Shown here: piece by piece, positions 978-57,794 of the stretch | How positions within the stretch are numbered: the stretch's first letter is position 1 | Layout of the letters: the number at the start of each line of letters is the position of its first letter | Made by a program: the position numbers and the translations under genes | The notes under the pieces: generated by a model | Told to the model about the DNA's origin: nothing | Seen by the model: the letters and a program-made list of their open reading frames with translations, nothing else | Database searches by the model: none | Source: Candidatus Uhrbacteria bacterium | GTDB taxonomy: Bacteria; Patescibacteriota; Patescibacteriia; UBA9934; GWF2-40-263 | Assembly: GCA_016844925.1 (NCBI GenBank) | Contig: JAERTI010000056.1 | Coordinates: 96,533-160,532, forward strand | Direction of reading: 5' to 3' | Length of the DNA stretch: 64,000 nt

Positions 978-1006
978 TTGACAAAACCCCTTATGGGCGG
1001 TATGTT
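978..1006 (+). promoter_or_regulatory. sigma70-like promoter for the GC-rich ACP-like cassette
   Basis: TTGACA (978-983), 17-bp spacer, TATGTT (1001-1006); GGAGG ribosome-binding site at 1030-1034, 7 nt before the ATG at 1042. Confidence 0.45.
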
Positions 1007-1041
1007 TTCGCCGTTCTGCTCAATGGAACGGAGGAAAGTCA

Positions 1042-1287
1042 ATGAAGGACATTGAAAACCAGGTCATCGACCTCGTGCGCGAGATCGTCTTGATGGGGCC
1101 GGGGGAGACGGTGAATCTCGATGATGCTCTTCGGGGGGACCTGGACTACGACAGTCTGGACATCGTCGAGCTTGTCATGGCCGCCGAGAAGAAATTCAAG
1201 GTCCAGATCACGGACGAAGATACCGACAACCTGAGCACCGTCCAGGACCTGGTAGACCACATCGTGCAGCTCAAGGCTGCGGCCTGA
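1042..1287 (+). CDS. acyl carrier protein-like (phosphopantetheine-binding) protein, lies in a GC-rich island
   Basis: 81 aa; DLDYDSLDIVELVMAAEKKFKVQITDED matches the ACP Ser-attachment motif (DSLD..VELVMA.EE.F.I.I.DE). Confidence 0.6.
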   Translation: MKDIENQVIDLVREIVLMGPGETVNLDDALRGDLDYDSLDIVELVMAAEKKFKVQITDEDTDNLSTVQDLVDHIVQLKAAA

Positions 1288-1295
1288 GCACGCCA

Positions 1296-1322
1296 ACCCC
1301 GCTACGCTGCGGGGATTTTTTG
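1296..1322 (+). terminator. rho-independent terminator after the ACP-like gene
   Basis: ccccgc-tacgct-gcgggg hairpin followed by ATTTTTTG. Confidence 0.55.
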
Positions 1323-1406
1323 TATGCGCTCGACAAAATAAGGTTCTTTTTGCTAAGGTCCTGCCATGCTCAATCCAGCATCGTGCTGGAGAATTACGGA
1401 GGTGAG

Positions 1407-1974
1407 CATGTTCGAGGACAGTTTCGCGCGGATGAGAGCCGACGAAGACGATGGTGGTGGTGAGACGCTGAGCCTCCTGCACATGATCAACGTTCGGCCC
1501 TTCGACATCGCGTCGGTGGAGGCCTACAAGGCACAGCAGATCAAGGAGAACACGCCGTTCATCCCGATGACCCCCGAGCGGGTCGCTCTGCTCGGCGAGG
1601 TCCTGAACCGTGGGGTCGCCCTGTCGATCGCCGCAGCGGGCGTGTGCGGCTTCCTGGCGCTCAGCGTCAGCAGCTGGTTCTGGCTGGCTCTGCCGCTGGC
1701 AGCCCTGCACGTGATCGCCGACATGTACATCTGGAACAAGTCCCTGCGCGGACACCCGAGCTGGCAGCGCGTCTCGCACGATGACTACGAGGACTTCATC
1801 CCGGTGCAGGTGCTCGGTGCTCTGGAGCGAGTGCGGGCCATGTTCCCGCGGGCCAGCTTCTACATCGACAAGCTGGTGCAGAACGAGACGATCATCGACC
1901 CCTTCCTGGTCGCCAACATCGACGGCGTCGACTACTACATCGCCGTCTGGGACGAGGACGACTTCCTGGTCTGA
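1407..1974 (+). CDS. hypothetical membrane protein (GC-rich island)
   Basis: ORF 1366..1974; preferred start MFEDSF at 1407 with GGAGGTGAGC just upstream; two predicted TM helices (ALSIAAAGVCGFLALSVSSWFWLALPLAALHVIA); no recognisable family. Confidence 0.4.
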
Positions 1975-1994
1975 CGGACCAAGGACAACGACAT

Positions 1995-7306: not shown

Positions 7307-8110
7307 ATGAAACTACGCGGTTCGCGCCGCGGTAGACGGCGCCTCATCATTGTCCTGCTATTCCTTCTTCTTGCATCCGTCTTTACATTTCGAGGTGTTG
7401 TTGCGCGCATCATTGAGCCTAGTTCCGTACAATTGACTGAGGCGGCAACATGGATTTATGAACGGGTCTTCTGGTTTGTGACGGCTGGTGAAATTACCCC
7501 AGAAGAGTTAGAGGTGCTCTATGAGCAGCGTGACGCGTTAGCGATCGATAAAGCCGCGTTTGAAGAGCTTCAAATAAAGCATGCGGAAACCTTGGCCCTG
7601 CTCGGCTATAGAGACAGGACGGAGACTGAAGGGATCGTTGCTCAGATTATGGCAAAGACCATCTCTGGAACCACGGCCACATTTGTTATTACTGTTGGTG
7701 AGGATGACGGGGTCACTGTCGGGGATCCGGTGATTGTTGGTGGAGGAATTCTTTTAGGAAAAATTGCGTCTACGGGAAGCACCACCTCAACCGTTACAGC
7801 TCTGACAGATACGGGCTATGCAACTGCTGTGACCTTGTTTAATGAAAGTCGAACCATTGGCATGGCCTCTGGGACGATTGGGGACTTACTGGAAATCACC
7901 TTTATTCCAACGGATGAATTCCTGGAACCCAACATGATTGTCGTAACATCAGGGCTAGAGGAATCTGTTCCCAGTGGGCTCCTTGTTGGGGTGATTAACA
8001 CGGTCCAAGAAGATCAAACATCACCATTTCAAACGGCCATTGTCGAACCTCTGGCAGACATGAGGCGCGCCTCGAGTGTTCTTGTACTGCCGCAACAGTC
8101 GTATGATTAA
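7307..8110 (+). CDS. mreC: rod shape-determining protein MreC
   Basis: N-terminal TM helix, coiled-coil region, C-terminal beta domain (GDPVIVGGG...SGLLVGVI); lies immediately after mreB. Confidence 0.7.
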   Translation: MKLRGSRRGRRRLIIVLLFLLLASVFTFRGVVARIIEPSSVQLTEAATWIYERVFWFVTAGEITPEELEVLYEQRDALAIDKAAFEELQIKHAETLALLGYRDRTETEGIVAQIMAKTISGTTATFVITVGEDDGVTVGDPVIVGGGILLGKIASTGSTTSTVTALTDTGYATAVTLFNESRTIGMASGTIGDLLEITFIPTDEFLEPNMIVVTSGLEESVPSGLLVGVINTVQEDQTSPFQTAIVEPLADMRRASSVLVLPQQSYD

Positions 8111-8621
8111 AACACTTCTTTACCTCGCAGCTTTTCTGACGCTCTTTACACTCGAGGTGAGTTTTATCCATGCGCTACCTGTTCCATTTGATCGAATGCC
8201 GCTGATGCTAACGAGCGTCGTCTTTTTATACCTCTATGTAGGTTTCCCAGCGGTGCTTTGGTGGCTGATCTTTCACGGCATACTGCTTCAGGTGTTTGTT
8301 TTAGACTTCGCTCCATTCCATCTCTTAGCCTACATTGCCGCTGCAATCGTCACCGTGCTGGCATCCAAGCACGTATTCTCCAACCGATCATTTTATGGCG
8401 TCGCCTCAACAACAGCGCTAGCCATTGTTACGGTACTTCTCGTGGAGATTCTCCTTTCTGTGATTGGTACATTCTTCGGGCAGGTTTCTGTGCCTTTTGG
8501 CATATTGCTACACGTGCGCCTGTGGGGAATTGCCTTGAGTGCGCTTGTTCTTCTGCTCTTGTTTCCTTTATCGACAAAACTCCGAGGAGCTTTACACTCA
8601 CTATTTCAACACTACACTTAA
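8103..8621 (+). CDS. mreD: rod shape-determining protein MreD-like membrane protein
   Basis: Small polytopic membrane protein between mreC and the PBP2 gene; ORF 8076..8621, with the internal start at 8103 giving the smaller overlap. Confidence 0.5.
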   Translation: MIKTLLYLAAFLTLFTLEVSFIHALPVPFDRMPLMLTSVVFLYLYVGFPAVLWWLIFHGILLQVFVLDFAPFHLLAYIAAAIVTVLASKHVFSNRSFYGVASTTALAIVTVLLVEILLSVIGTFFGQVSVPFGILLHVRLWGIALSALVLLLLFPLSTKLRGALHSLFQHYT

Positions 8622-8624
8622 GAC

Positions 8625-10565
8625 ATGCTATTTCGCCGAAAACAATCTAGTTCGCGTGTTTTCCAAATTCAGGACGACGGTCGTTTTGGTCGAGTAGCAC
8701 AATCAGATACTGACGGGATTGAAGATTTTTTGTCAGGCGGATCAATGTCGTCTGGACGAAAACAAACGCTCCACTGCACGCTTGATCGGACCCGGATGCG
8801 CTTTATGGCAGTCTTGATTGTGGCTGTCGTTTTTATCTTCGTTGGCCGAGCTGGGCAACTGCAGATTGCCCGTGGTGAGTACTACCGATCACTCTCAGAT
8901 CAGAATAGAAACAAGATTGAATTGCTCGTGCCTCCGCGCGGAGAGATCAGAGATCGGTACGGAAACCTGCTGGCGTGGAATGAACCGTCGTTTGTACTTA
9001 CCATGACGATCAACGAGCTTCCTGAAGATGATACGGAGCGCAGGGCATTATTTGAACACGTAGCTGAACGAGTTGGCTTGCAGCTGACCGATCTCGATTT
9101 ATTGATGTCGGAGTACATTTCCCGTCGGTACGATTCCATTCCTGTTGCGGAGGATGTTCCTTATGAGGCGGGCATTCGTCTGGCGATCGAGGTCGCAGAC
9201 CTTCCGGGGTTTGAATTAGAGACCACAAGTAAACGTGTTTACAATGCATCCGCTGGCACGCTCTCACATGTGCTGGGGTACACAGGGTCTCTCTCGGCCA
9301 GAGATCTCGATACATTTGCGGATCTTGGGTATCGGCCAATCGATGACATTGGAAAATCTGGTATTGAACGTCAGGTGGAAACGATCTTGCGGGGGGTGCC
9401 TGGAAAGCTTGCCTATGAAGTCGATGCCAGAGGAAACCGAATCGCCATTGTTTCCAAGGAGCCGGCGACCGATGGGGCGGACATCTCCTTAAGTATCGAT
9501 CTTGAGTTTCAGAAGTATATCGAGACGCGTTTAGCAAAGACACTTGAAGCCACAGGCGCATCTCGTGCGTCGGTTGTGGCCCTTGACCCACAAACGGGTG
9601 CGGTGAGAGCGCTTGTGAGTTGGCCTAGTTTTGATAGTAACGAGTTTACAAACGGAATCTCACAAGAGCGGTACACAGCCTTGCTTGAGGATGAAGACAA
9701 TCCACTTTTTCCTCGCGCGATCGCGGGGGAGTTCCCATCGGGATCAACGTTCAAGCCTTTCGTCGCCTATGCAGCGCTCGCTGAGGGGGTTGTGGGGGAA
9801 CACAGTTCCTTCCTTTCTACCGGCGGTGTACGTATCGGCCAGTGGTATTTTCCAGACTGGAAGGCAGGTGGCCACGGCATCACAGACGCCCGTAAAGCGC
9901 TCGCTGAGTCTGTGAACACGTATTTTTATATCATCGGTGGAGGATACGATACGGTCACAGGGCTCGGGGTTGCACGGATTGATGAGTATGCGAGTCAGTT
10001 TGGCTTTGGTAGCCCAAGTGGCATCGATCTGCCAGGGGAAGCCGACGGCTTCCTTCCCACAAAGGAATGGAAACAAGAAGTGAAAGGAGAACGATGGTAT
10101 GTTGGTGATACGTATCATCTCGCCATCGGACAGGGAGACTTTTTGACCACACCGCTTCAAATGGCGGCAGCCACGGCTGTTATTGCCAATGGTGGCTACC
10201 GTGTCGAGCCGTACGTCGTCGAGTCTGTTGATGGACCCGCGGCTGGTGAATTGCTTCATGGTGATATCGAGGAGCTCGAAGAATTGGATAGCTATGCGCT
10301 GACCGTTGTTCGACAAGGCATGCGGCAAACCGTAACAGTGGGAAGTGCCCGCTCAATGGCTGATCTGACCGAGGCAGTCGCAGGCAAGACGGGAACGGCA
10401 CAAACGCTTGGAGACAGGCCTTACCACTCATGGTTCACTGGTTTCGCCCCATATGATGACCCAACAATTACCCTTGCGGTCCTTATCGAAGAAGGTGGTG
10501 GCTCAAATGATGCCGCCGTACCGCTTGCTAGAGAACTACTACAATGGTGGTTCTATCGATCATAA
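8625..10565 (+). CDS. mrdA: penicillin-binding protein 2 (peptidoglycan D,D-transpeptidase)
   Basis: TM anchor; transpeptidase motifs SxxK (SGSTFKPF), SxN and KTG (AGKTGTAQ); located in the mre operon. Confidence 0.85.
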   Translation: MLFRRKQSSSRVFQIQDDGRFGRVAQSDTDGIEDFLSGGSMSSGRKQTLHCTLDRTRMRFMAVLIVAVVFIFVGRAGQLQIARGEYYRSLSDQNRNKIELLVPPRGEIRDRYGNLLAWNEPSFVLTMTINELPEDDTERRALFEHVAERVGLQLTDLDLLMSEYISRRYDSIPVAEDVPYEAGIRLAIEVADLPGFELETTSKRVYNASAGTLSHVLGYTGSLSARDLDTFADLGYRPIDDIGKSGIERQVETILRGVPGKLAYEVDARGNRIAIVSKEPATDGADISLSIDLEFQKYIETRLAKTLEATGASRASVVALDPQTGAVRALVSWPSFDSNEFTNGISQERYTALLEDEDNPLFPRAIAGEFPSGSTFKPFVAYAALAEGVVGEHSSFLSTGGVRIGQWYFPDWKAGGHGITDARKALAESVNTYFYIIGGGYDTVTGLGVARIDEYASQFGFGSPSGIDLPGEADGFLPTKEWKQEVKGERWYVGDTYHLAIGQGDFLTTPLQMAAATAVIANGGYRVEPYVVESVDGPAAGELLHGDIEELEELDSYALTVVRQGMRQTVTVGSARSMADLTEAVAGKTGTAQTLGDRPYHSWFTGFAPYDDPTITLAVLIEEGGGSNDAAVPLARELLQWWFYRS

Positions 10566-15600: not shown

Positions 15601-16431
15601 ATGGCACGGAGGGATTTTTTCAAACGCACACAGCGAAAGCGCTATAAAGCCGGACGGTATCGCAATCCGTATTTTCAGAATGTCAAAAAAATTCCATGGA
15701 AGCCGTTAAGTGCTGTTGTCGGAACGTTGGTTGTGATCTTACTAGGATTAAACCTGATGTTCTCCAGTCCACGTCTTGCGATTCAGAATGTTCAGATTAA
15801 GGGCGTTGAACACATCGACCCAGCTCAAATAGAGCAGCTCGTTCAGTCCTACCTGCAAAGCCGCGCCTTGCTGATATTCAAGACCTCGAACCAATTCTTG
15901 TTTTCTTCTGAAGAGCTGAGTACTGAATTAGAAAACGCGTTTGCATTGGCGAATGTTAGTATGGGGCAGTCAGGGGGGATACTTACGATTACGATCGCAG
16001 AAAGAACGTCGAACTTAATTTGGGAGTCAGGGCAGGGGAGATATGTTGTTGATCTCGAGGGGGTGGTGACACGAAGCCTTGGGGCAGAGGAGGATCTGGG
16101 ACAACCTTTGCCTACATTTTCCGACACAAACAATCTGGACGTCTCAGTAGGGGACATTGTCATGACACCAGAGGAGATCGAGAATGTGTTTGCCTTTCTT
16201 GATCAGCTTGAGGCGCAAGGAATCACGTATGACACCATTCGCGTGGATCGTCTTGCTGGTAAATGGATGAGCGTCGAAACAACCGAAGGATTTGAAATTC
16301 TGTTTGACTCCGTTGGAGACATCTCCACACAAGCCTCTCATTTGGAAACAGTGCTACTAGACCAGGTTGAAGATCGTTCAGAGCTCGAATATATCGATGT
16401 ACGGTTTGGTGATCACGTCTACTATAAATAG
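15601..16431 (+). CDS. ftsQ: cell-division protein FtsQ/DivIB-like
   Basis: Basic N-terminus, single TM helix, then a POTRA-like extracytoplasmic domain. Confidence 0.5.
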   Translation: MARRDFFKRTQRKRYKAGRYRNPYFQNVKKIPWKPLSAVVGTLVVILLGLNLMFSSPRLAIQNVQIKGVEHIDPAQIEQLVQSYLQSRALLIFKTSNQFLFSSEELSTELENAFALANVSMGQSGGILTITIAERTSNLIWESGQGRYVVDLEGVVTRSLGAEEDLGQPLPTFSDTNNLDVSVGDIVMTPEEIENVFAFLDQLEAQGITYDTIRVDRLAGKWMSVETTEGFEILFDSVGDISTQASHLETVLLDQVEDRSELEYIDVRFGDHVYYK

Positions 16432-16558
16432 GCCGATTTCAAAATTGAGCTCTAAGCGTTTTAGGGGTACTAGGGTACCTATAGAAACAAACAGAACACG
16501 CGCCGCCTTGAACCTAAGTCCTAAAAAACACCTTAAACGTTGACCGTTCTAATCTAAC

Positions 16559-16586
16559 GTGTCGCATAAGGTATAATGTGCGACAC
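16559..16586. promoter_or_regulatory. Perfect 8-bp inverted repeat flanking a TATAAT box (candidate operator/promoter or sRNA start)
   Basis: GTGTCGCA-taaggTATAATg-TGCGACAC; sits in a 250-bp non-coding gap with TTGACC 26 bp upstream. Confidence 0.3.
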
Positions 16587-16609
16587 AAGGTACATAATCA
16601 TTTAAATAA

Positions 16610-16640
16610 AGAAAGAGCCCTACCCGGCTCCTCTTTTTTA
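16610..16640. terminator. bidirectional rho-independent terminator between convergent genes
   Basis: gagcc-ctaccc-ggctc hairpin flanked by AAAGAAA and TTTTTT. Confidence 0.5.
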
Positions 16641-16680
16641 ACTGATGCTCCTGAACAAAATCTGTCGAGAAGCGTAATTG

Positions 16681-16887
16681 CTATGTGAGAAAGTTTGTTA
16701 GGTACACGATTGCCAAGGTGATCGCACCAATCAGGAAGATCGCAATACCCATGAGGGTCAAACCCTTTATGAGCCCATCATCCTTCCCTGCCCCCCAGAC
16801 CATAATTGTACTTATGACAAGAAACACGAGAAGCGGGACGATGGTGAAAATCCATCCGAAGAATTTTACAACGAGAGTAAGTGTCAT
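16681..16887 (-). CDS. small hypothetical membrane protein (68 aa, 2 TM)
   Basis: Two hydrophobic helices; lies 1 nt downstream of the M23 peptidase gene. Confidence 0.35.
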   Translation of the reverse strand: MTLTLVVKFFGWIFTIVPLLVFLVISTIMVWGAGKDDGLIKGLTLMGIAIFLIGAITLAIVYLTNFLT

Positions 16888-16888
16888 A

Positions 16889-18088
16889 TTAGTACGACAT
16901 CAAGTAATCAAGTGGTTGAGTCGGAATACCGTTTTTTCTCACCTCAAAGTGCAGGTGAGGCCCTGTTGAGAATCCTGTATTACCCACCGTTCCGATCTGT
17001 TGTCCCCTACTGACGAATTGGTCTGGTGAGACATTCATGCTGTTCAAGTGAGCATACAATGTGGCGAGACCGTTGGTATGAATAACCATGATGTAATTTC
17101 CATAGAGTCTCCCCTGCCGAGTCCAAGCAACGTAACCAGGAGCCGCTGAGACGACCGGCGTTCCTGTTGGTGCAGGAAGGTCCACCCCCGAGTGTTCAAA
17201 CAGATGCCTGAATGGATATGTGGGGTCGTGAAAGTACGCAGAAATTCCTCTGATAGTGGGATCAACTGGCCACGAAAGGACACTGGAATCCCCTACCTCG
17301 TCGCTGGCATTTAGACGACCCTCTATTTCTGCCTGAAGTGCGACAATCTGCTGATTGATGAATGTCTGCTCTTCTCGCACCTCTGTAAGCAATCTACGGA
17401 ATTCTGCCTCAGAACTTTTTGTCTGATCTACGAGAACTGTTTTCGCATTTTGTTCTTCCTCAAGAAGGGCTCTGCTTTGAATCAGAGACTCCTCATAGGC
17501 GACAAGCTGGTCCTTTTTTGCTTGTTCTGAAGCATGCTTTTCCTCTAATTTTATCCGCGTTTTTCGAGCTTGATCAACAGCACCCTTTAAGTCAGTACTC
17601 ACATTTTCCAAACGCTCTAACTCATCGAACAGTTGCGAGAAAGAATCTGTACCGAAAAGCACTTGCAATCCAAAACCGTCACCAAGCACCTGGATCTGTT
17701 GAAGAACTTCAGAAATCATCTCTCGTTGACTATCCAAAAGATCTTCCTGTTCGTGAATTTCGTCTTCAATGATCGAAATTTCCGCATTTGTCAGATCAAT
17801 AGAAACTTCAGCGGCATCAATATCCAGTGCGGTTTTTGCAATCCTGTTTTCAAGAAGATCAACTTCACCTTCAAGTGTCGCGGCTTCAGCTTGTTTTTCT
17901 TCGATCTTTGATTGATAGGCGCTGATTTGTCGATTGAGTTGATCGATCGAATCACGCTTGAATTCAATCTCGGAATTAAGAACCTGAACATCAGCATGTT
18001 CGCCTGAGTGTGCCATCAAAAAACCCCCGCTTGGCACCATCAGTGCCAGCAGCAGTAGAACAAGAAATCGTTTTGCTCCCTCCATCAT
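16889..18088 (-). CDS. M23-family peptidoglycan DD-metalloendopeptidase with N-terminal coiled coil (EnvC-like)
   Basis: Signal peptide, long coiled coil, C-terminal LytM domain with HxxxD and HxH motifs (HSGVDL...GPHLHFEV). Confidence 0.8.
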   Translation of the reverse strand: MMEGAKRFLVLLLLALMVPSGGFLMAHSGEHADVQVLNSEIEFKRDSIDQLNRQISAYQSKIEEKQAEAATLEGEVDLLENRIAKTALDIDAAEVSIDLTNAEISIIEDEIHEQEDLLDSQREMISEVLQQIQVLGDGFGLQVLFGTDSFSQLFDELERLENVSTDLKGAVDQARKTRIKLEEKHASEQAKKDQLVAYEESLIQSRALLEEEQNAKTVLVDQTKSSEAEFRRLLTEVREEQTFINQQIVALQAEIEGRLNASDEVGDSSVLSWPVDPTIRGISAYFHDPTYPFRHLFEHSGVDLPAPTGTPVVSAAPGYVAWTRQGRLYGNYIMVIHTNGLATLYAHLNSMNVSPDQFVSRGQQIGTVGNTGFSTGPHLHFEVRKNGIPTQPLDYLMSY

Positions 18089-20330: not shown

Positions 20331-20345
20331 GTTGACTCGTTAGAA

Positions 20346-20372
20346 TTAGCACTCTATACTAGAGAGTGCTAA
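20346..20372 (+). promoter_or_regulatory. CIRCE element (HrcA operator) upstream of clpB
   Basis: TTAGCACTC-tatactaga-GAGTGCTAA exactly matches the CIRCE consensus TTAGCACTC-N9-GAGTGCTAA, 18 nt before the clpB ATG. Confidence 0.8.
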
Positions 20373-20389
20373 ACGCCAAAAACGTTATT

Positions 20390-36759: not shown

Positions 36760-36779
36760 CCCATTCCAGTGTCATAATA

Positions 36780-36808
36780 AACAAAAAATGGACATTTCGT
36801 CCATTTTT
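36780..36808 (-). terminator. rho-independent terminator ending the ribosomal-protein operon
   Basis: aaatggac-atttc-gtccattt hairpin with flanking A/T runs. Confidence 0.6.
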
Positions 36809-36817
36809 CTTGATCTT

Positions 36818-46946: not shown

Positions 46947-47705
46947 TTATTCCTCCTGATGTTCACGCTTCTGCTCGTGCCCAAAGCGATACTTAAACTT
47001 GTCATGCTTAATCGGTCCCAGCAGCGCAAGGTGTAGCTCTGCCATCATGTACTTCATGGCGATTCTCATGCGACCGTCGCGATCCATTCGACGAATAGAG
47101 ACAGGGATCTTTGTTGACTTAAGAAAGCCAAACTTCCCTTTCCCTCTTGTCCGCTGTGCGTAGTCATGATCCTCACAAAACGTAATCTCTTCATCAAACC
47201 CACCAATTTCCTCGTGGAGCGATCTTCGTGCCAACATGCAAAAACCTGGAGCATGAGGAAAGACCGACCCCCATGCACGCGCGTAGGTGTTGTAAGCCTT
47301 GTGCATGAAGTGATCAATAAACGCGTCAGAGAGCGGAAACACATCACATGTCGCCAAATCCAACTTGCGCTCAAGCATCTCCCCCACAGCCTTCTCCAGA
47401 AACTCTGGATCCCGCAGCTCTACATCTGCATCAAGAAAAAGAATGATGTCTGTCGTTGCAGCCGCAGCTCCTGCATTGCGCCCTCGTGATACAGCCCCTC
47501 CCTCCACAACCGTCGCCCCATGTGCGAGCGCGATCTCTCGCGTTCGATCAACCGACCCTGCATCAGCTACAATAACCTCCGTTGGTTGGAGTGTTTGTCG
47601 TTTGATGGATTCGAATAGCCCTGGCAAGCAGGACTCTTCGTTCATGGCTGGAATGACAATCGTTAACATTACGTCCATTTTACCCTGTAGGGACTCCCTG
47701 GACAA
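46947..47705 (-). CDS. glycosyltransferase family 2
   Basis: LTIVIPAMNEE...VIVADAGSVDRT...LFLDADV. Confidence 0.7.
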   Translation of the reverse strand: MSRESLQGKMDVMLTIVIPAMNEESCLPGLFESIKRQTLQPTEVIVADAGSVDRTREIALAHGATVVEGGAVSRGRNAGAAAATTDIILFLDADVELRDPEFLEKAVGEMLERKLDLATCDVFPLSDAFIDHFMHKAYNTYARAWGSVFPHAPGFCMLARRSLHEEIGGFDEEITFCEDHDYAQRTRGKGKFGFLKSTKIPVSIRRMDRDGRMRIAMKYMMAELHLALLGPIKHDKFKYRFGHEQKREHQEE

Positions 47706-49746: not shown

Positions 49747-49786
49747 AAAAACCGGCTGTCACCATTGACATAGGCCGGTTTTTTGT
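49747..49786 (+). terminator. rho-independent terminator after era; a TTGACA lies in its loop
   Basis: aaaaccggc...gccggtttt stem followed by TTTTGTTTAT; loop TTGACA (49765-49770) plus a 17-bp spacer plus TATCTT (49788-49793) forms a candidate promoter for the next gene. Confidence 0.55.
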
Positions 49787-49817
49787 TTATCTTCGCATGT
49801 CCACACTAGGAGGAACT

Positions 49818-50747
49818 ATGGACTACAGAGCGTTCCTGCGCAGACACGACGCTGCGCTCAAGACGGCAGGACTCTGGGCGAGGGCCTGGACACTGCAGCG
49901 ACTGCTCGAAAGCTGCCTGCTCGTCGTCAAGATGGATGCAACCTACTACACACGTGAGTGGGCCATCAAGCACCGACAGATGCTGGTCGATGCTCTCTGC
50001 GAAGTCTGTGTGACGGCGCAGATCCCGCTGCCGGACATCGAGCCGGACATGGTCAATGGCCTGTTGCCCACGGACCAAGAACTGAAGCCCGGCTCCCGCA
50101 AACGACTCGAGATCGTCCAGACCTTGCGCGGTCGACTGCGTGATCACGGGAGTCTGGGAGCGGCAGAGCTCCACGGCTTTGCCGATGTGCTCAGCGCCTT
50201 CGAGTTCAACGACTTCAGCGGCCCCAACATGGTCCAGATGCTCGCCGCAATCAACGCTCGCCTGCTCAAGGAGGGGCTCGAGCCCCTCCGTGGCCCCTAC
50301 AAGGGCAATGTGATCTGCCCGGGCGCTGGCACAGAGGGACCTCTGCGCACGGTGCTGATCGTGGACGACAGTCTGGAGGCCTTGATCAAGACGTGGATCG
50401 CCGTCGCAGGTTGGCCCACTCTCGAGCCTCACAAGTACCTGTACGAACCCTCGCAGAGAACCCTGCTGGAGGGAGAGGCAAGCGAGACTCGGCTTGCCGA
50501 GGTGGCCGCGCAAATCCTGAAGTGCCAGCCGGACGTCGTCATCATGGACCACGGCCTGGGCGACATCCACGGAGACAAGCTCATCGAGACCCTTCGGGCG
50601 AGCGGTGGCAAGGACATCATCTTCGTCGCCAATACCGGCGGTGACATCGACGCGTTCAGATCCGTCCGATTGCGCGAGAACTTCGACAAGGGCAAGAACC
50701 TCTCTGCCCTCGCGTCGGCGCTCCATCGAGCGAACCGACGCCGCTAG
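49818..50747 (+). CDS. orphan response-regulator-like protein: novel N-terminal domain with a C-terminal receiver (REC) domain (GC-rich island)
   Basis: AGGAGG ribosome-binding site 5 nt before the ATG at 49818; C-terminus has VLIVDD (beta1), DVVIMDHGLGDIHG (beta3 with phospho-acceptor Asp), ANTGG (beta4 Thr) and FDKGK (beta5 Lys); the N-terminal 175 aa show no recognisable motif. Confidence 0.5.
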   Translation: MDYRAFLRRHDAALKTAGLWARAWTLQRLLESCLLVVKMDATYYTREWAIKHRQMLVDALCEVCVTAQIPLPDIEPDMVNGLLPTDQELKPGSRKRLEIVQTLRGRLRDHGSLGAAELHGFADVLSAFEFNDFSGPNMVQMLAAINARLLKEGLEPLRGPYKGNVICPGAGTEGPLRTVLIVDDSLEALIKTWIAVAGWPTLEPHKYLYEPSQRTLLEGEASETRLAEVAAQILKCQPDVVIMDHGLGDIHGDKLIETLRASGGKDIIFVANTGGDIDAFRSVRLRENFDKGKNLSALASALHRANRRR

Positions 50748-50769
50748 AGCCTCTCAGGCTCTTTTTTTC
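50746..50769 (+). terminator. rho-independent terminator
   Basis: agagcc-tctca-ggctct hairpin followed by TTTTTTT. Confidence 0.5.
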
Positions 50770-50772
50770 TTG

Positions 50773-50814
50773 CACGCTAATCCATTGACAAACCGTCATT
50801 TTTTGATTAGCGTG
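50773..50814. promoter_or_regulatory. 10-bp perfect inverted repeat (candidate operator) enclosing a promoter -35 box
   Basis: CACGCTAATC-N22-GATTAGCGTG; TTGACA (50785-50790) plus 17 bp plus TAGCGT lie inside it; 52 nt upstream of the gene at 50866. Confidence 0.35.
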
Positions 50815-50865
50815 TCGTGTGGCGAATGGATTGCCGCACCCGAAACTCCTAGGCCTGGAGGGCCT

Positions 50866-51513
50866 ATGTTTACCCTCATGCTCGTGCCCATGTTCTCGCC
50901 GGATGGCGAAGAAGGCGGGCGGCGTGAGAAGCGGAAGGTTCCCCGAAAGAACCCCCGCATCAAGAGCAAGCTCGTCTGCGAGAAGGACCCCAAGAGCGGA
51001 AAGACTACCGGCACAGCCGTGCTGAACATGCACCAGTGCACCGGAGACCTGGCTCCGCAGCGGTTCGAAAGCGGACGTCTGTACAAGCAACTCCTCTTCA
51101 GCATCACCGAGGACCACGGCGTCCCTGCATTCACCAACCTGACCCCCAAGGGCATGGAGGCGTTCGTCGCGGGCAACAGTCGCCCCATCCAGATCGTGGA
51201 AGTCATCGCCGTCCCCGACTTCGATGGCGGAGAGCTCGAAGTCACGATGTACTCCACCCCGCCCATCAGCTGGGGTGGCAAGGACCTCTCCGACAAGCTG
51301 ATGGCTACGGGCCTGCTCATGCTCATGGGCTACGAGGAGATCCCGCTGGGTGAAGACGCCGAGGCCAGCATGGACCTGGGTCTGCCCGAGCTCGACGAAG
51401 GCTTCATCGACCTGCTCGACAGCACCATGGGCTACCACTCCCCCGAGATGGACATGGAACTCCTGGAGGACGAGAACTCCGACGATTGGCTCTTCGAGGC
51501 CGAAGGCGACTAG
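50866..51513 (+). CDS. hypothetical acidic protein (GC-rich island)
   Basis: 215 aa; basic N-terminus (RREKRKVPRKNPRIKSK) and a very acidic C-terminal third ending ...DDWLFEAEGD; the 50605 ORF is a 5' extension. Confidence 0.4.
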   Translation: MFTLMLVPMFSPDGEEGGRREKRKVPRKNPRIKSKLVCEKDPKSGKTTGTAVLNMHQCTGDLAPQRFESGRLYKQLLFSITEDHGVPAFTNLTPKGMEAFVAGNSRPIQIVEVIAVPDFDGGELEVTMYSTPPISWGGKDLSDKLMATGLLMLMGYEEIPLGEDAEASMDLGLPELDEGFIDLLDSTMGYHSPEMDMELLEDENSDDWLFEAEGD

Positions 51514-51522
51514 CTCAAACGA

Positions 51523-51574
51523 AAAAGCAGCTTTACGCTGCCCCGCACCCTTACGTGGGTGCTATTTATTTTGT
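51523..51574. terminator. back-to-back terminators for convergent genes
   Basis: gcagc-tttac-gctgc preceded by AAAAA serves the minus strand; gcaccc-ttacgt-gggtgc followed by TATTTATTTT serves the plus strand. Confidence 0.5.
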
Positions 51575-52505: not shown

Positions 52506-52772
52506 CTATTCAGAGATGTCTTCTCCAGCTGCCCACTTCGCGAGTCGCTCCTCGGAAGTCGCGCCACAGATCCACATCTTAGATTCATCATTATAGAAAA
52601 ACGGAACACCGCCGCACTTACCGCCATCAATTTCCTCAAGCTTTTTGGCATTGTCATCGTTATGCCATGTCTCAAGCTTCTCAATCGCGGTGCCGTCCTC
52701 AATCATTCTATCCACAATGGGAAGCATTTGATGACAGTGTGGGCATTCCTCTCCGTAAAAAAAGTAGAGCAT
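52506..52772 (-). CDS. thioredoxin/glutaredoxin-like small protein
   Basis: CPHC active-site motif (GEECPHCHQMLPIV) and GGVPFF further along. Confidence 0.6.
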   Translation of the reverse strand: MLYFFYGEECPHCHQMLPIVDRMIEDGTAIEKLETWHNDDNAKKLEEIDGGKCGGVPFFYNDESKMWICGATSEERLAKWAAGEDISE

Positions 52773-52810: not shown

Positions 52811-53386
52811 ATGCTTATTCGCCTCCTCACAGCCACCGTTTTCCTCGCCATCATGGCGCTGCTTATTCTGCAGCGTTTTTCCATGCCACCTGAATTCCCT
52901 GTCATCGATGCATCCACAGGCGAAACATTCTCTCGGGGCGAAATCATCACCACTGACGATGACTACCTCGCTCTCACAATCGGCGAAAACAACATCTATC
53001 TTGCTGAAAATACGGTTCTTGAGCTCGACAGAATCTACGAGGACGAACTGGTCGTCACCCTCACAAAAGGACGCCTACTCGTAAGCGCGCAGGGTGACAC
53101 TCCCTTTGTGATCGAAACGAATCACACAGACCACCTCGTCCATAAGGGTACGGCAAGTTTCATCAACTACGACTGGCTTGAGACCATCCACGTGATCCCG
53201 CTAGATGGCTCTGTCCAAACAACCATCCGAGGAACCAACGAATTCCTCCTCACCCCAACCCCAATTTCCATCCACGAGACCGCTCCCGTCACCTACGAGC
53301 CCCTCGAGGTAAGCCTCGACGCCGGCGCAAGCGCCCCCTTCTACACCTGGACTGGCGTTTTGACAGAAAACGCGCCCACAGAGTAA
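52811..53386 (+). CDS. hypothetical membrane-anchored protein (FecR-like?)
   Basis: N-terminal TM helix then a beta-rich domain; weak resemblance to FecR-type sensor domains. Confidence 0.3.
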   Translation: MLIRLLTATVFLAIMALLILQRFSMPPEFPVIDASTGETFSRGEIITTDDDYLALTIGENNIYLAENTVLELDRIYEDELVVTLTKGRLLVSAQGDTPFVIETNHTDHLVHKGTASFINYDWLETIHVIPLDGSVQTTIRGTNEFLLTPTPISIHETAPVTYEPLEVSLDAGASAPFYTWTGVLTENAPTE

Positions 53387-53420
53387 CCTCCCGTCGCGAA
53401 TCGTCGAAAGGAGACAAAAA

Positions 53421-54308
53421 GTGATCGATATCAGACAAGTGGAGACAGCCCAGCAGGCGTTTGACCTGCTCTCAGACGGAGAGCCCAAGATCATCAGCCG
53501 ATACGGCGCTCCGGAACTGATCCGACGTGCGGGCCTCGTGAAGGCCGGCGCATTCGACTTCGACGGCACGCTGATCACCAAGGCCCAGTGGGACGAGGTG
53601 GCCAAGCTGATGCCAGAAGATCTCCGACGGCGAGATCGAGAGTTCATCGAGTGGTACTTGGAACACCGAACCGACCAAGACCTGCCCGATACCACCCTCG
53701 ACGACCCAGACTGGTTCCACAGCCACCTGCTCGACTCCAACCGGACCGCAGCAGAGGGTGGATCTGTGGCACAGTTCGCCCACTTCTGTGAACGCTCCGG
53801 CATCACGCTGGGGAACCTGATCGAGACGGGCATGGAGCTCCCTCCCCGGGACGGTGCCATCGAGCTTCTCAAGCTCTTTGTCCTGTACGTCATCATCAGC
53901 TACGGCATCGAACACGTGATCCAGGGCTTCGCCAAGGCGCACGGCCTAGATCCGCACATCGTGGCCAGTCGCTTCAAGTTCCGCGAGCCGGACATGTTGG
54001 TCATGGGTCACGAATACAACGTCGTGGTCAGCTCCACCAAGCCGCTGGCAGCCAACCGGTTCCGCACCCTCACGGGCATCGCTGACGAAGAAATGCTCGT
54101 CGTCGGCGATTCGGTCGTGGACGTAGAGATGATGCACCCAGGAGGGCTCAACATCCTCGTCATGCCCTGCAAGGAAGCCAACAAGAAGCTCACGGCCTTC
54201 CGCAACGGCAACCTCGCTGGCATGTGGCCCAAGCTCACGGCCATCCTCTACAGCGACTCGCTCATGCCGCTAGTCGAGCTCATCGAGCTCGGACGCAGCC
54301 GCTCGTAG
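53421..54308 (+). CDS. HAD-superfamily hydrolase (GC-rich island)
   Basis: HAD motif I FDFDGTLI, motif IV VVGDSVVDVEM; GTG start after an AAAGGAG ribosome-binding site; GC about 62%. Confidence 0.6.
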   Translation: MIDIRQVETAQQAFDLLSDGEPKIISRYGAPELIRRAGLVKAGAFDFDGTLITKAQWDEVAKLMPEDLRRRDREFIEWYLEHRTDQDLPDTTLDDPDWFHSHLLDSNRTAAEGGSVAQFAHFCERSGITLGNLIETGMELPPRDGAIELLKLFVLYVIISYGIEHVIQGFAKAHGLDPHIVASRFKFREPDMLVMGHEYNVVVSSTKPLAANRFRTLTGIADEEMLVVGDSVVDVEMMHPGGLNILVMPCKEANKKLTAFRNGNLAGMWPKLTAILYSDSLMPLVELIELGRSRS

Positions 54309-54318
54309 CGCAACGCAA

Positions 54319-54347
54319 AACCGCCCCATACGGGAGCGGCTTTTTTC
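54319..54347. terminator. rho-independent terminator (probably serves both flanking convergent genes)
   Basis: ccgcccc-atac-gggagcgg hairpin followed by CTTTTTTC. Confidence 0.5.
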
Positions 54348-54349
54348 TA

Positions 54350-54796
54350 TTAGTCTTCGACCTCTTCCACCATTACCGGTGTCGGAGCTTCCTTTCTTTC
54401 CCATTTATGGAGCTCTCTCTGATCCTGAAGATGTGCCCGTTCTTCGGCATTCTTCCTTGCGTGCTCAATGGCTGTCTCAGGATCAACCCCTAAATCCATA
54501 AGGCCTGCAGCACTCAGTTTGGGAATATCTGTATCAAGATACTCTTCTTTTTCAGGATCAACCCCTTGCCCTTCATCAAGCACTCCCTTTTCGATCTTCT
54601 CTAGCAGCGGGTTTCCATACTCTTCCATATACGCCTTCGCAGCAGCCCTCTCTTCTGGGGTTGCCACAAACTCTTCCGGCTGCTTTTGTTGATCATAAAT
54701 AGGCGGACCAGCAATATCGCTTGTGATCTCCTTTTCCATTGATTCATCGATCGGCTGAGGCTGTGGCTCTCGCCGTAATTCTGGTGATGTAGGCAT
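54350..54796 (-). CDS. hypothetical acidic protein
   Basis: 148 aa; E/D-rich, no TM; lies downstream of mnmA. Confidence 0.3.
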   Translation of the reverse strand: MPTSPELRREPQPQPIDESMEKEITSDIAGPPIYDQQKQPEEFVATPEERAAAKAYMEEYGNPLLEKIEKGVLDEGQGVDPEKEEYLDTDIPKLSAAGLMDLGVDPETAIEHARKNAEERAHLQDQRELHKWERKEAPTPVMVEEVED

Positions 54797-54817
54797 AGGA
54801 CTTAAGTATAACGGATC

Positions 54818-55900
54818 TTAATCGATGATCCCACCACCGAGCACCTCTTCGTCGTCGTAGAACACAATCGACTGACCAGGTGTCACGGCACGTTGTGGCT
54901 CGGTAAAACTCACTGTAACGACATCACCCTCAATCGACTCAATCGTGCAGTCCTGCAGTGCTTGTCGATAGCGAATCCGTGCACGACATGCATGAGGCAA
55001 GGTCTTGGGTTCACTAAACCAGTTCAACTGTCGCGCGGTGAGACTTGATCGGAACAGCGCAGGATGAAAGTTACTCGCCACGACCACTTCCTTTGTCTCT
55101 GGCCGTTTCTCCACCACATACCAAGGCTCTCCACCTCCGATATTCAATCCATGACGCTGACCGATTGTGTAAAACGCCACCCCCTCATGGCTGCCGATCA
55201 CTTCCCCATCGACCGTGACGACATTTCCAGGATCCTTCGGTAAGCGCTGCTGCAAAAACTCTTTCATGTTCACCTCCCCAACAAAACAGATCCCCGTTGA
55301 GTCCTTCTTCTCCGCCACATCCAGTCCAAGCTCACGAGCCTTCTCCCGCACCTGAGGCTTCTCCATGTCTCCGATCGGAAAGATGACACGAGAGAGCACT
55401 TCCGGCGGCATGGCCCAGAGAAAGTAGGTCTGATCTTTGTTCTTGTCGTGGCCGGCCAGCAACTTACCGTCTTCAACTCGGGCGTAATGCCCTGTGGCAA
55501 CAAACTCGCAGCCGAGGCGATCTGCCTCGCGCATGAACTTATCGAACTTGATGAACTTATTGCACAGCACATCAGGATTCGGAGTGCGACCCATACGAGA
55601 CTCTTCAAACAAGTTTTCGACAACCTTCTCTCGGTAGTCTGCCTCAAAATCAAATGTGACAAACGGAATCCCTAGCTTTGCTGCCACACGCGCCGCATCT
55701 CGACGCTCCTCCTTCCATCCACACTCCTCAAACTCCTCCCCCACATCAGCTTCATTGGTGGACCTAGGGGCACACACAGAGCCGCTCCAATTCTTCATAA
55801 ATGCTCCCACCACCTCATATCCCTGCTCAACCAAAAGCGCCGCGGAAACACTAGAATCCACGCCTCCTGAGAGTCCTACAAGTACTTTTGGTTTTGACAT
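54818..55900 (-). CDS. mnmA: tRNA-specific 2-thiouridylase MnmA
   Basis: PP-loop motif SGGVDSSV, catalytic Cys residues; 360 aa. Confidence 0.9.
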   Translation of the reverse strand: MSKPKVLVGLSGGVDSSVSAALLVEQGYEVVGAFMKNWSGSVCAPRSTNEADVGEEFEECGWKEERRDAARVAAKLGIPFVTFDFEADYREKVVENLFEESRMGRTPNPDVLCNKFIKFDKFMREADRLGCEFVATGHYARVEDGKLLAGHDKNKDQTYFLWAMPPEVLSRVIFPIGDMEKPQVREKARELGLDVAEKKDSTGICFVGEVNMKEFLQQRLPKDPGNVVTVDGEVIGSHEGVAFYTIGQRHGLNIGGGEPWYVVEKRPETKEVVVASNFHPALFRSSLTARQLNWFSEPKTLPHACRARIRYRQALQDCTIESIEGDVVTVSFTEPQRAVTPGQSIVFYDDEEVLGGGIID

Positions 55901-55952
55901 AGAGGCGAATATAGCTTATTTTTTGGCCATCCTCAAGCCAAGGAGTACGAGG

Positions 55953-56435
55953 ATGTTGATGAGAGAATTTCACGTTCTGGTCATCGAGGACAACGCCGCC
56001 GAAGAGAAGCGCCTCATGGCGTTCCTGGCAGAGCACATGCCGGGAGATCGGAAGCTGCGCATCCACTGGCACCGCACCGTCGAGAGCGGACTGCGCTTCC
56101 TGATCGGGTGCGGATACGACATCCGGATGATCTTCTGCCACGACGTCCAGCCCGCCAGGGTGGCCACGGCCGAGGAGCGCAAGACCCTGTCGCTCGTCAC
56201 CGAGCGTCCCGAGCGCACCGGCGAGGTCTGGCGCCTCATGACCTGCATGAGCGCCCTGCAGATGGACCGCCCCCTCTTGATCGGTCTGTGCGACAGGATC
56301 AAGGGCACGCGAGACCTGCAGAAGCCCTTGGACTACCACGGTCCGGTCGGCTTCTACCTCGCCCGCCACAAGACCGAACCCTGGTCCTGCGTCAGCGACG
56401 CCGTGACGGAACTCACCGTCAGCCGCGCCGCCTGA
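55953..56435 (+). CDS. small hypothetical protein, possibly a divergent single-domain receiver (CheY-like) protein (GC-rich island)
   Basis: AAGGAG ribosome-binding site 7 nt upstream; VLVIEDNAAEEKRLMAFL (beta1/alpha1-like) and DIRMIFCHDVQP (beta3-like); GC about 63%; the 55656 ORF is a 5' extension. Confidence 0.4.
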   Translation: MLMREFHVLVIEDNAAEEKRLMAFLAEHMPGDRKLRIHWHRTVESGLRFLIGCGYDIRMIFCHDVQPARVATAEERKTLSLVTERPERTGEVWRLMTCMSALQMDRPLLIGLCDRIKGTRDLQKPLDYHGPVGFYLARHKTEPWSCVSDAVTELTVSRAA

Positions 56436-56444
56436 CTCTCAACT

Positions 56445-56491
56445 CCCGCCCTATCGAGCTCAGCTCGACACGCAAGGGCGGTTTTATTTTT
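56445..56491 (+). terminator. rho-independent terminator
   Basis: cccgccct...agggcgg stem (loop contains the nested palindrome tcgagctcagctcga) followed by TTTTATTTTT. Confidence 0.5.
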
Positions 56492-57794
56492 GACAACCAT
56501 CAAAGAGTTCGGGAAGCAAGCTCACATCCTCACGGAGAATAAAGAAATCTGTAAACTGAAGTTTCTCGTTATATTTTTGCAACAAATCTGAGTAGTCGAA
56601 GATCGGCACAAGTCCCTTACCCATGAGCATCTGCTTTTTCACAAAGATCGGCTGCGCTCGGCCCTCCTCTCCCAAATGCGTCAACTCACGCGCAACGGAA
56701 TGCGTAAACCAACGTGCTCCCATGAGCTCACAACGCTTTTTCAAGTCCTCAAGATCCTTCATGTCCTGCGGGTTGCGATCATGCAAGCGCATCACACGCT
56801 TAGCAGGAAGCCGGTTCATCAAATGATGCGACCAGTAGTTCTTCTCGTCCTGCGCGGCATCAAACAATTTTTCAATCACGACCCCATCGCGAAGTGCAAC
56901 ATACGCATAGGGATCCGTCGGAATCTGCAAATCAATCTCTCCAGTCTCGATCGCTTGTTCAAGATAGTGCGTGAATCCTGCCTTTGTTTTGTGGAAGTAC
57001 ACCTGGTCCACCATGTGATAGCGCGCTAGGAGCAAATCCTCAAATGCACGCACTCCATTCTCCGAGATCGTGAACACAAGCTCATCGTCTCGCTGCGCCA
57101 CCCCCATAGAGGAAATCAACCAGTCGATATCATACTGCCCGTAAGCGACGCCGCAGAAGTAACTATCGCGCAGCAAATAGTCCATACGGTCTGCATCGAC
57201 CTCACCCGAGATCAGCCCCTTGAGCACACGCTGCAAGCTTGGGATCTTCTCGATTCGTTTGTAGAACCACGCAGACGGCTTAATGGATCCATGGACAAGC
57301 GAAGCGATGTCCTGTGCCAAGTTTCGATCAAGCGCTCCTTCATCAGCCATCGTCTGGATGAGCAGTACGCTGTAATCCTCGTGCACAGCCTGTCGCGACT
57401 CTTTCTCTCGCCACCACCCCCAATCAAGCGGCAGGTCTTCCAGCTGCGGAAATACAATCTCAGAAGCATGGGAGAATGGCCCATGACCAATGTCGTGGAG
57501 CAAACCAGCAAGCCTAACGCGCATTCTAAGGGCCTCAATATCGTCTCCTGAGAGCTTTTCTTTGAAAATAGATGAACTACTCATGACACGACCAAACAAA
57601 CGACCAGCCACATGCATAGCGCCAATGGCGTGAGAGAACCGGTCATGCACGGCCCCTGGGTACACATACGACTGCAGGAAGCCTAGTTGTGAGATAAACC
57701 GCAGCCGTTGAAAAAACGGGTGGTCAATAATCCCCCGCTCAAACTCGCTAAAAGCGATGCGTTTATGAATTGGATCTCGAAGTTCAAAGCTCAT
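56484..57794 (-). CDS. HD-domain dNTP triphosphohydrolase (dGTPase-like)
   Basis: HD motif (VHDRFSHAIGAMHVA...LLHDIGHGPFSH); 436 aa with Dgt-family architecture. Confidence 0.75.
   Translation of the reverse strand: MSFELRDPIHKRIAFSEFERGIIDHPFFQRLRFISQLGFLQSYVYPGAVHDRFSHAIGAMHVAGRLFGRVMSSSSIFKEKLSGDDIEALRMRVRLAGLLHDIGHGPFSHASEIVFPQLEDLPLDWGWWREKESRQAVHEDYSVLLIQTMADEGALDRNLAQDIASLVHGSIKPSAWFYKRIEKIPSLQRVLKGLISGEVDADRMDYLLRDSYFCGVAYGQYDIDWLISSMGVAQRDDELVFTISENGVRAFEDLLLARYHMVDQVYFHKTKAGFTHYLEQAIETGEIDLQIPTDPYAYVALRDGVVIEKLFDAAQDEKNYWSHHLMNRLPAKRVMRLHDRNPQDMKDLEDLKKRCELMGARWFTHSVARELTHLGEEGRAQPIFVKKQMLMGKGLVPIFDYSDLLQKYNEKLQFTDFFILREDVSLLPELFDGCQK

Follow-up and report, generated by a model that had tools for sequence, protein, structure and literature searches.

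Islands of high third-position GC form variable accessory gene slots between the operons of a Candidatus Uhrbacteria chromosome

We analyzed a 64,000-nucleotide stretch of a Candidatus Uhrbacteria genome (GenBank assembly GCA_016844925.1, contig JAERTI010000056.1, forward-strand positions 96,533 to 160,532; hereafter, the window), in which six GC-rich islands lie between housekeeping operons. Islands 1 to 6 contain nine open reading frames (ORFs), which we refer to as I1a, I1b, I2a, I2b, I3, I4a, I4b, I5 and I6. Our best explanation, to which we assign a probability of about 55%, is that the six islands represent hypervariable slots for accessory genes, renewed through recombination within Patescibacteria, in which an excess of GC at third codon positions (GC3) is actively maintained. 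The slots lie at operon boundaries and show gene gain, gene loss and allelic replacement between conserved flanks. Their GC-richness is limited to synonymous sites and is a maintained trait of an accessory gene class across the clade. The islands are, as a preliminary description of this DNA had put it, compositionally foreign-looking, self-contained cassettes between intact native operons.

Base composition delimits the islands sharply. Runs called at a GC fraction of at least 0.58 coincide with all six: 1053–2047 (0.60), 23096–24172 (0.57, the weakest), 35318–36729 (0.61), 49787–51572 (0.61), 53129–54407 (0.59) and 55913–56548 (0.61). The window as a whole is 51.2% GC (standard deviation 0.05 across 200-bp windows) and about 50% GC outside the islands, placing the background at about 50–51% and not at the ~49% first given for the genome. 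Similarly, the 60–65% GC originally ascribed to the islands holds only for their 500-bp peaks (0.63–0.65), while their overall values are 57–61%. Each island amounts to one or two ORFs with very high GC3, with a frame-specific step in GC right at the ORF boundaries. GC3 spans 0.75–0.89 in the nine island ORFs versus 0.39–0.64 in 45 native genes (pooled, 0.817 versus 0.514; Mann-Whitney p = 2.8e-6), confirming that the six islands are real.

The excess is restricted to synonymous positions. GC1, GC2 and GC3 are 0.633, 0.395 and 0.817 in the islands and 0.601, 0.397 and 0.514 in native genes. By regression across 70 loci, a genome with a GC3 of 0.81 is expected to have a GC2 of 0.449 and a GC1 of 0.687; island GC2 is close to the native value, hence the island proteins do not resemble those of a high-GC proteome. 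Their amino-acid composition (GARP minus FYMINK residues) is native-like. Relative synonymous codon usage (RSCU) of the islands correlates with that of native genes at r = 0.20 and with that of any high-GC genome tested at r = 0.79–0.87. We rejected RSCU as a means of identifying a donor, since island codon usage fits every high-GC genome equally well. GC at 4-fold degenerate sites is 0.78 in islands, 0.90 in high-GC Uhrbacteria and 0.48 in native genes, and the contrast between 2-fold and 4-fold sites is small. NNY codons end in C in 83% of cases, and TAT is never used (RSCU 0.00). The lowest native GC3 belongs to ribosomal-protein genes (0.39–0.44), so island codons run opposite to those of highly expressed genes. 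Selected mRNA structure was rejected as the cause of the GC3 excess: measured against synonymous-codon shuffles, mean minimum-free-energy z-scores do not differ between islands (−0.44) and native genes (−0.34).

Comparison with a sister species, at ~91% nucleotide identity and recovered from several aquifer metagenomes (loci L083, L086, L176 and L179), reveals turnover at the islands. I4a is absent from the sister, in which window positions 49801–50779 are missing. In the window, two copies of a ~39-bp terminator/promoter segment bracket I4a, where the sister has a single copy. The adjoining 3′ end of era diverges unusually strongly, at a synonymous divergence (dS) of 0.85. I2a is also absent, with 155 bp of unrelated DNA replacing window positions 23056–23800. 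The sister allele of I5, which encodes a HAD hydrolase, is 46% identical at the protein level and that of I1a, an acyl carrier protein (ACP), 51% identical; native proteins are about 96% identical (range 92–100%). The HAD gene is mosaic relative to the sister, with conserved ends and 59% nucleotide identity in its first two-thirds. Other island genes are 79–95% identical, with ratios of nonsynonymous to synonymous divergence (dN/dS) of 0.14–0.52: I1b (82% identical, 0.52), I2b (79%, 0.27), I3 (0.14), I4b (0.37; a 235-aa form in the sister, 92% identical over 205 aa with a different C-terminus) and I6 (84%, 0.42). Median dN/dS is 0.42 in islands and 0.04 in native genes (p = 5e-5), and is below 1 in all seven comparable island genes. 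The island genes are under relaxed or diversifying selection and, because every ratio is below 1, they are real functional genes and not junk.

Native genes also diverge unevenly between the window and the sister. Their dS runs from 0.00 (an 88-aa gene at 52506–52772) through typical values of 0.18–0.85 to 1.85 (a Memo/LigB-like gene at 25658–26446), which suggests a chromosome-wide recombination mosaic extending beyond the islands.

More distant relatives show the same sites occupied, empty or differently filled. Islands 1, 3, 4b, 5 and 6 are kept in the sister species, and homologues of islands 1, 3 and 5 occupy the same positions in farther relatives. Islands 4, 5 and 6 are absent from three more distant Uhrbacteria (L003, L004 and L008), and the gap between era and the neighboring lipoprotein gene measures 30–39 bp in L004, L006 and L008. 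Strain specificity, which the initial description had put forward as a check, thus gives a mixed picture: I4a and I2a are missing in the sister and islands 4–6 in those three Uhrbacteria, and islands 1, 3 and 5 recur at their sites in relatives. The same junctions (after atpC, beside era and after rpsI) hold different GC3-rich genes in different relatives, mostly without a Pfam match; a few encode MFS transporters or a solute-binding protein.

The GC3 excess recurs across the clade in genes of this kind. We surveyed 259 genes from 20 related loci, counting as conserved those present in three or more other loci. Of 134 poorly conserved genes, 22 exceeded the median GC3 of their locus by more than 0.15, versus none of 125 conserved genes (Fisher p = 2.4e-7). 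Homologues of I3 have a GC3 of 0.60–0.75 versus 0.29–0.51 in native genes, including those of L092 (0.60, with native genes nearby at 0.29–0.44) and L093 (0.67, with 0.36–0.45). At the atpC/carbonic anhydrase site of L099, a 273-aa ORF and an ACP gene reach 0.74 and 0.69 among native genes at 0.35–0.41, and the I4a homologue of L094 reaches 0.77 among native genes at about 0.35–0.50. The GC3 of the HAD gene exceeds that of adjacent mnmA in six of six genomes spanning 34–65% GC, with HAD GC1 and GC2 following the host: 0.70–0.72 and 0.46–0.48 in the high-GC loci L010 and L016, and a native-like 0.64 and 0.38 in the window. Between the window and L092, native 4-fold sites differ at 44–68%, near saturation. 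An ancient import would be fully ameliorated at such a distance; the GC3 excess outlasts this saturation and is therefore not a fading donor signature.

Searches beyond the lineage provided no sign of a donor. No island protein had an actinobacterial relative, and neither tblastn against plasmids and phages nor IMG/VR scans revealed phage, plasmid or viral-contig relatives. Together with native-like GC2 and amino-acid usage, this leaves unsupported the original proposal that the islands were acquired repeatedly from a high-GC, possibly actinobacterial, donor. The closest homologues of islands 1, 3 and 5 come from the same lineage and sit at the same syntenic sites, an outcome that the initial description had named as refuting its proposal. 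The only matches of island proteins in PHROGs and PADLOC were a generic one in PHROGs for the ACP and a weak one in PADLOC for I6 (E = 0.007). No repeat family was found at the island borders, where the sole flanking repeat is the ~39-bp duplication around I4a, and the islands lack a tRNA or integrase boundary. A mobile-element-borne island, expected to show an integrase or transposase, a tRNA target, flanking repeats, attC sites or phage genes, was rejected on the missing border repeats, the absence of detectable tRNA genes in the window and the nearly empty PHROGs and PADLOC results. A phage moron was rejected on location, since the islands lie next to atp, clpB, ribosomal-protein, era and mnmA genes. 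The islands are not paralogues of one another either, as an all-against-all BLASTP of their proteins was empty. In a study of groundwater Patescibacteria (PMC12455944), 109 of 131 inferred transfers came from other Patescibacteria and one from Actinomycetota.

In our reading, each slot holds one or two small, predicted monocistronic genes that belong to a lineage-restricted, fast-evolving pool. We propose that genes enter, leave and replace one another in these slots by homologous or homology-facilitated recombination acting via the conserved genes on either side. Incoming DNA would most likely derive from other Uhrbacteria or Patescibacteria and would probably enter by natural competence; groundwater Patescibacteria retain competence and homologous-recombination genes, according to the same study (PMC12455944). 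High GC3 is probably sustained by GC-biased gene conversion, with the slots acting as hot spots of recombination; the alternative is selection for a distinct codon regime. Recombining bacterial genes have higher GC3, with the strongest effect at synonymous sites (PMC4450053), and, read with that work, the synonymous-site excess in our window falls in genes showing signs of recombination, namely mosaic or replaced alleles.

Several observations weigh against this explanation. The GC3 excess of +0.25 to +0.35 is far above the few-percent effects reported for GC-biased gene conversion in bacteria. Island dS does not differ significantly from native dS (p = 0.38), leaving silent-site constraint without direct support, and the sister clade is nearly monomorphic, with too little variation to polarize silent substitutions. 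Among 5.8e9 proteins, I2a found only itself and no homologue. I2a and I4a may have come from a reservoir not yet sampled, high in GC3 but ordinary in GC2. The contigs with I3 and I4a homologues, among them GCA_041294325.1, GCA_043801745.1 and JGI 3300022227, are placed taxonomically by gene context only. The I4a homologue in L095 lacks GC3 enrichment, and a 340-aa gene at the era/lipoprotein site of L003 has a GC3 of 0.36. A 129-aa acidic orphan in the window, described below, has a native-like GC3 of 0.42 (dN/dS 0.21), so GC3-richness is not universal among lineage-specific genes.

Alternative explanations were weighed on the same evidence. The islands might be incompletely ameliorated imports from a high-GC donor, either Actinobacteria as the putative host of an epibiont or another phylum. 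Their codon usage, foreign to native genes and close to that of high-GC genomes, is what such imports would show; I2a and I4a are recent presence/absence differences, and I2a has no homologue in the lineage. However, amelioration should erase GC3 first and GC1 and GC2 last, the islands show the reverse, and the GC3 excess persists past saturation of native silent sites. No island-protein relative was detected outside contexts resembling the candidate phyla radiation (CPR), the same-site homologues in relatives largely refute this origin for islands 1, 3 and 5, and Actinomycetota account for that single transfer among 131 in PMC12455944. We regard a donor of this kind as quite unlikely. One-way import from Uhrbacteria or other Patescibacteria of 62–66% GC, with the islands as partially ameliorated copies, has points in its favor: relatives span 34–65% GC, the high-GC L010 and L016 hold a HAD gene and REC-domain genes beside mnmA, and island 4-fold GC (0.78) is intermediate between the high-GC Uhrbacteria and native values. 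Yet the HAD protein of the window is least like the L010 and L016 alleles (26% identity) and nearest to that of the mid-GC L006 (39%), its GC1 and GC2 are native-like where theirs are not, and HAD GC3 stands above that of mnmA even within the high-GC genomes, which together make this source improbable.

Vertical inheritance, with GC3 raised by selection on codon choice (tRNA or tRNA-modification tuning, deliberately non-optimal codons that keep expression low or conditional, or mRNA stability) and no special role for recombination, would account for an enrichment that is synonymous-only and clade-wide. It would also fit codons opposite to those of the highly expressed ribosomal-protein genes, the preponderance of C-ending NNY codons and the complete avoidance of TAT, and the 50% identity of I3 to its distant orthologues is what vertical descent at 4–5 times the native dN would give. 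It leaves the presence/absence differences and allelic replacement between sister species unexplained, though, and must contend with mRNA folding no stronger than in synonymous shuffles and with a trait common to unrelated gene families; we consider it doubtful. That the islands are artefacts, either of chimeric metagenome assembly or of spurious ORFs in GC-rich non-coding DNA, is scarcely credible. The sequence is a contig of a metagenome-assembled genome (MAG) and long shadow ORFs do arise in GC-rich DNA, but identical junctions occur across independent assemblies and samples, and the sister retains the same genes at the same sites. Moreover, codon periodicity is strong, GC3 far exceeds GC2, dN/dS is below 1 in all seven comparable genes, and three products match Pfam or structural families. 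Recombination-refreshed slots with maintained GC3 thus remain our preferred explanation.

The island products had been described as orphans throughout, which is true of I2a but not of the ACP and HAD proteins, which match Pfam, or of I4a, whose family comprises at least 121 representative clusters. In island 1, I1a (1042–1287, + strand; GC3 0.82) encodes an 81-aa ACP that matches PF00550 (E = 1.8e-11; 44.6 bits, cut-off 20.8), has a visible D-S-L-D motif and scores under the NCBIfam equivalog cut-offs. The ACP at the same site in L099, there accompanied by the 273-aa ORF, is 36% identical to I1a, and the sister species carries an ACP plus a 188-aa protein. I1b (1408–1974, + strand, with the ORF opening at 1366; GC3 0.88) encodes a predicted membrane protein, for which the 188-aa form is on record and which has zero family matches in Pfam, NCBIfam, PHROGs and PADLOC. 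In two relatives, L097 (473–925) and L096 (2251–2703), codon periodicity is missing from the roughly 450 bp that follow atpC, where ORFs are open on both strands; this stretch may represent a non-coding RNA or a decayed gene, and has no Rfam match.

Island 2 lies on the − strand and comprises the orphan I2a (23171–23743; 190 aa, GC3 0.75), with a signal-peptide-like segment at its N-terminus, and I2b (23801–24142; 113 aa, GC3 0.76). Island 3 holds I3 (35398–36687, − strand; GC3 0.80), which encodes a 429-aa lineage-restricted protein. Its homologues among 5.8 billion proteins form three clusters only (94, 54 and 50% identity), all of them at the rpsI/wzx site in syntenic related contigs. A C-terminal motif, YDGPSLFSDLP, is conserved. 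The AlphaFold2 model of I3 is unusable, with a predicted local distance difference test score (pLDDT) of 33. The EEGD tail said to be shared by two island products is not conserved in the I3 homologues, and the C-terminus of I4b differs in the sister. Adjoining the I3 homologue of L092 is an extra GC3-rich orphan of 330 aa (7823–8815; 0.67 versus native values of ~0.33), and L093 has a comparable GC3-rich partial ORF upstream of its I3 homologue.

In island 4, I4a (49818–50747, + strand; GC3 0.79) encodes a 309-aa protein with an N-terminal helical domain and a C-terminal receiver (CheY-like) domain. Of its family's representative clusters, 98 match with E < 1e-10, and the best matches lie in contigs of 46–48% GC that are CPR-like by gene context. 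Across 62 members, D183 and D244 are invariant and D184, T273 and K291 are at least 90% conserved. PF00072 matches 31 of the 62, and window I4a itself scores 19.4 bits, under the 30.2 cut-off. The AlphaFold2 model (pLDDT 92) matches the receiver domains of KdpE, RstA and CheY in Foldseek with a probability of 1.0. With the conserved residues and this model, I4a has a bona fide receiver domain. I4b (50866–51513, + strand; GC3 0.85) encodes a 215-aa protein with an acidic C-terminus and was detected in no genome other than those of the window and the sister species. A 25-nt near-repeat (84% identity; 46959–46983 and 50866–50890) joins the first codons of I4b (MFTLMLVP) to the antisense of the 3′ end of a glycosyltransferase gene (46947–47705), probably by chance.

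I5 (53421–54308, + strand; GC3 0.81) encodes a 295-aa HAD-IB-type hydrolase that matches PF12710 (33.0 bits, cut-off 27) and PF00702 (32.7 bits, cut-off 26.4) and contains FDFDGT, the DxDxT motif I; TIGR01488 scores 37.7, under its cut-off of 45. Positional homologues beside mnmA occur in L006 (39%), L017 (31%), and L010 and L016 (26%). The 129-aa acidic orphan (54350–54739, − strand) is shared by the window and the sister alone, and L003 and L004 lack it. I6 (55953–56435, + strand; 160 aa, GC3 0.89) had been grouped with I4a as a receiver protein. The assignment stands for I4a but is not supported for I6, which has no family match, receiver domains included, in Pfam and NCBIfam, no PDB sequence match, and an hhalign probability of 10% over 20 residues against the I4a family. 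Tandem receiver-domain proteins of 265–280 aa do lie beside mnmA at the position of I6 in L010 (5056–5898) and L016 (9117–9914), and no sequence similarity between them and I6 was detected. Past I6 and downstream of the HD gene, the palindrome TCGAGCTCAGCTCGA (window 56451–56465) marks where native intergenic sequence resumes, and it is kept in the distant relative L004 (about 9900–9960).

Most cassettes are single-ORF units with their own promoter-like site and terminator. The promoter, ribosome-binding site (RBS) and terminator assignments are consensus-level sequence matches, and at that level the self-contained expression cassette first ascribed to every island is recovered for most, with the exception of island 5, which lacks its own promoter and shows only an RBS. 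Pattern scans in island 1 (+ strand) place a sigma-70-like promoter, TTGACA-17-TATGTT, after the atpC terminator (978–1006), and intrinsic terminators after I1a (1297–1314) and I1b (1995–2013). Direct reading of the sequence gave the TTGACA sites that precede islands 2, 3 and 4b, as well as the AAGGAG or GGAGG RBSs. A bidirectional terminator separates clpB from I2a (23062–23091), and a TTGACA-17-TATAAA promoter with an AAGGAG RBS precedes I2b (24150–24200, − strand). I3 has a TTGACA promoter with the RBS AAAGGAGG (36700–36760, − strand) and a downstream intrinsic terminator (35367–35385, − strand); the rpsI terminator (36783–36809) lies upstream of its promoter.

At island 4, on the + strand throughout, the era terminator hairpin carries a −35 TTGACA within its loop, followed by a −10 element (49751–49800). 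This is copy 1 of the ~39-bp segment flanking I4a, and the promoter reads TTGACA-17-TATCTT at 49765–49793. The sister species has the same era hairpin with the −35 TTGACA in its loop (window 49751–49800) and compensatory changes in the stem. Downstream of the I4a terminator (50746–50762), copy 2 of the promoter segment (CCATTGACA...TTTTTTGATTAGCG), the I4b 5′ untranslated region and a GGAGGG RBS span 50781–50865 and align to the single copy of the sister; a further terminator follows I4b (51545–51562). I6 has an AAGGAG RBS at 55938–55943 (+ strand).

The host is placed by MnmA, which is 76–77% identical to its orthologues in Candidatus Uhrbacteria MAGs, with synteny over more than 20 kb. The Saccharibacteria-like epibiont suggested earlier was right as to the CPR/Patescibacteria and wrong as to the lineage; Uhrbacteria are placed in the Parcubacteria/Patescibacteria group, and related Uhrbacteria loci span 34–65% GC. 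Pfam supports the housekeeping names given to the flanks (atpD/atpC, ClpB, a UvrD-like helicase, a Pro_CA_2 carbonic anhydrase, Era, MnmA, an HD protein, RpsI and a Wzx-like flippase) but not the FecR-like gene. Identical island junctions appear in the 174.8-kb NCBI contig and in independent Logan assemblies, so the islands are not assembly artefacts. An Rfam scan of the window detected zero RNA families. Elsewhere in the window, cumulative GC skew peaks near 16.5 kb (about 16400–20400), where genes switch from the + to mostly the − strand; the peak may be a replication landmark or just gene strand bias. At 58570–63224 (− strand), a gene for a 962-aa protein resembling a type IV secretion coupling protein (TrwB_AAD_bind) precedes a 589-aa gene. 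The pair is conserved across Uhrbacteria loci and may be related to the Patescibacteria type IV secretion system of PMC12102498.

The islands are a compositionally deviant accessory islet of an unusual kind: GC-richer than the core, deviant at silent sites only, anchored at junctions, persistent in the clade and fast in protein evolution. Acquired or ORFan genes are typically AT-richer than their host. Like the islets of the amelioration framework of Lawrence and Ochman, the islands are short segments of deviant GC3 and codon usage between intact operons, with a patchy distribution among relatives and accessory or unknown functions. They differ in being GC-richer than the host, in a deviation that is synonymous-only and outlasts silent-site saturation, in having same-lineage, same-site homologues, and in lacking a tRNA, integrase or repeat boundary. 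A second comparison is with phage morons, which are promoter-gene-terminator units added between phage genes. The islands share with these the unit itself, the position between transcription units and a composition unlike that of the neighbors, but have no prophage context or viral relatives, and their flanks are chromosomal housekeeping genes.

Recombination-associated GC3 enrichment (Lassalle et al. 2015, PMC4450053) resembles our case in its third-position excess, its association with recombination-marked genes and its independence of optimal codons, whereas here discrete accessory genes, rather than a core-gene continuum, are enriched, and the magnitude of +0.25 to +0.35 GC3 is much greater than reported. 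The large G+C-rich (lgr) genes of the amoeba symbiont Protochlamydia amoebophila (PMC2216083) are also a few scattered, conspicuously GC-rich genes in a host-dependent bacterium. They form one paralogous family of very large leucine-rich-repeat genes, in contrast to the small, unrelated island genes of this CPR genome. Exchange within the phylum in groundwater Patescibacteria (PMC12455944) is alike in habitat, phylum and Patescibacteria-to-Patescibacteria direction. In the portion considered, that study treats islands and transferred genes in general, and mentions neither GC3-rich slots of single genes at conserved junctions nor an excess of GC limited to synonymous sites.

Genes of deviant composition are commonly taken for recent imports from a GC-matched donor, a shortcut that fails here and that, in CPR epibionts, invites claims of host-to-symbiont transfer. 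Even if GC3 proves not to be maintained, the correction stays: gene flow is within Patescibacteria and not from Actinobacteria. We tentatively suggest, as a possibility short of even odds, that Uhrbacteria, and perhaps Patescibacteria widely, carry, in fixed slots at operon junctions, a distinct fast-evolving class of accessory genes whose silent sites are actively driven to or held at 25–35 GC3 points above the core while their amino acids stay native. If true, such a class would run opposite to the common pattern in bacteria, in which young or accessory genes tend to be AT-rich, and would imply either unusually strong GC-biased gene conversion at hot spots or a second maintained codon regime, for example one serving conditional translation of host-interaction genes. 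If GC3 is indeed maintained, the slots would offer a tractable natural system, within an uncultivated phylum of reduced genomes, in which to measure biased gene conversion or selection on a codon regime, and would mark the Uhrbacteria genes likeliest to take part in rapidly evolving interactions with hosts, phages and competitors.

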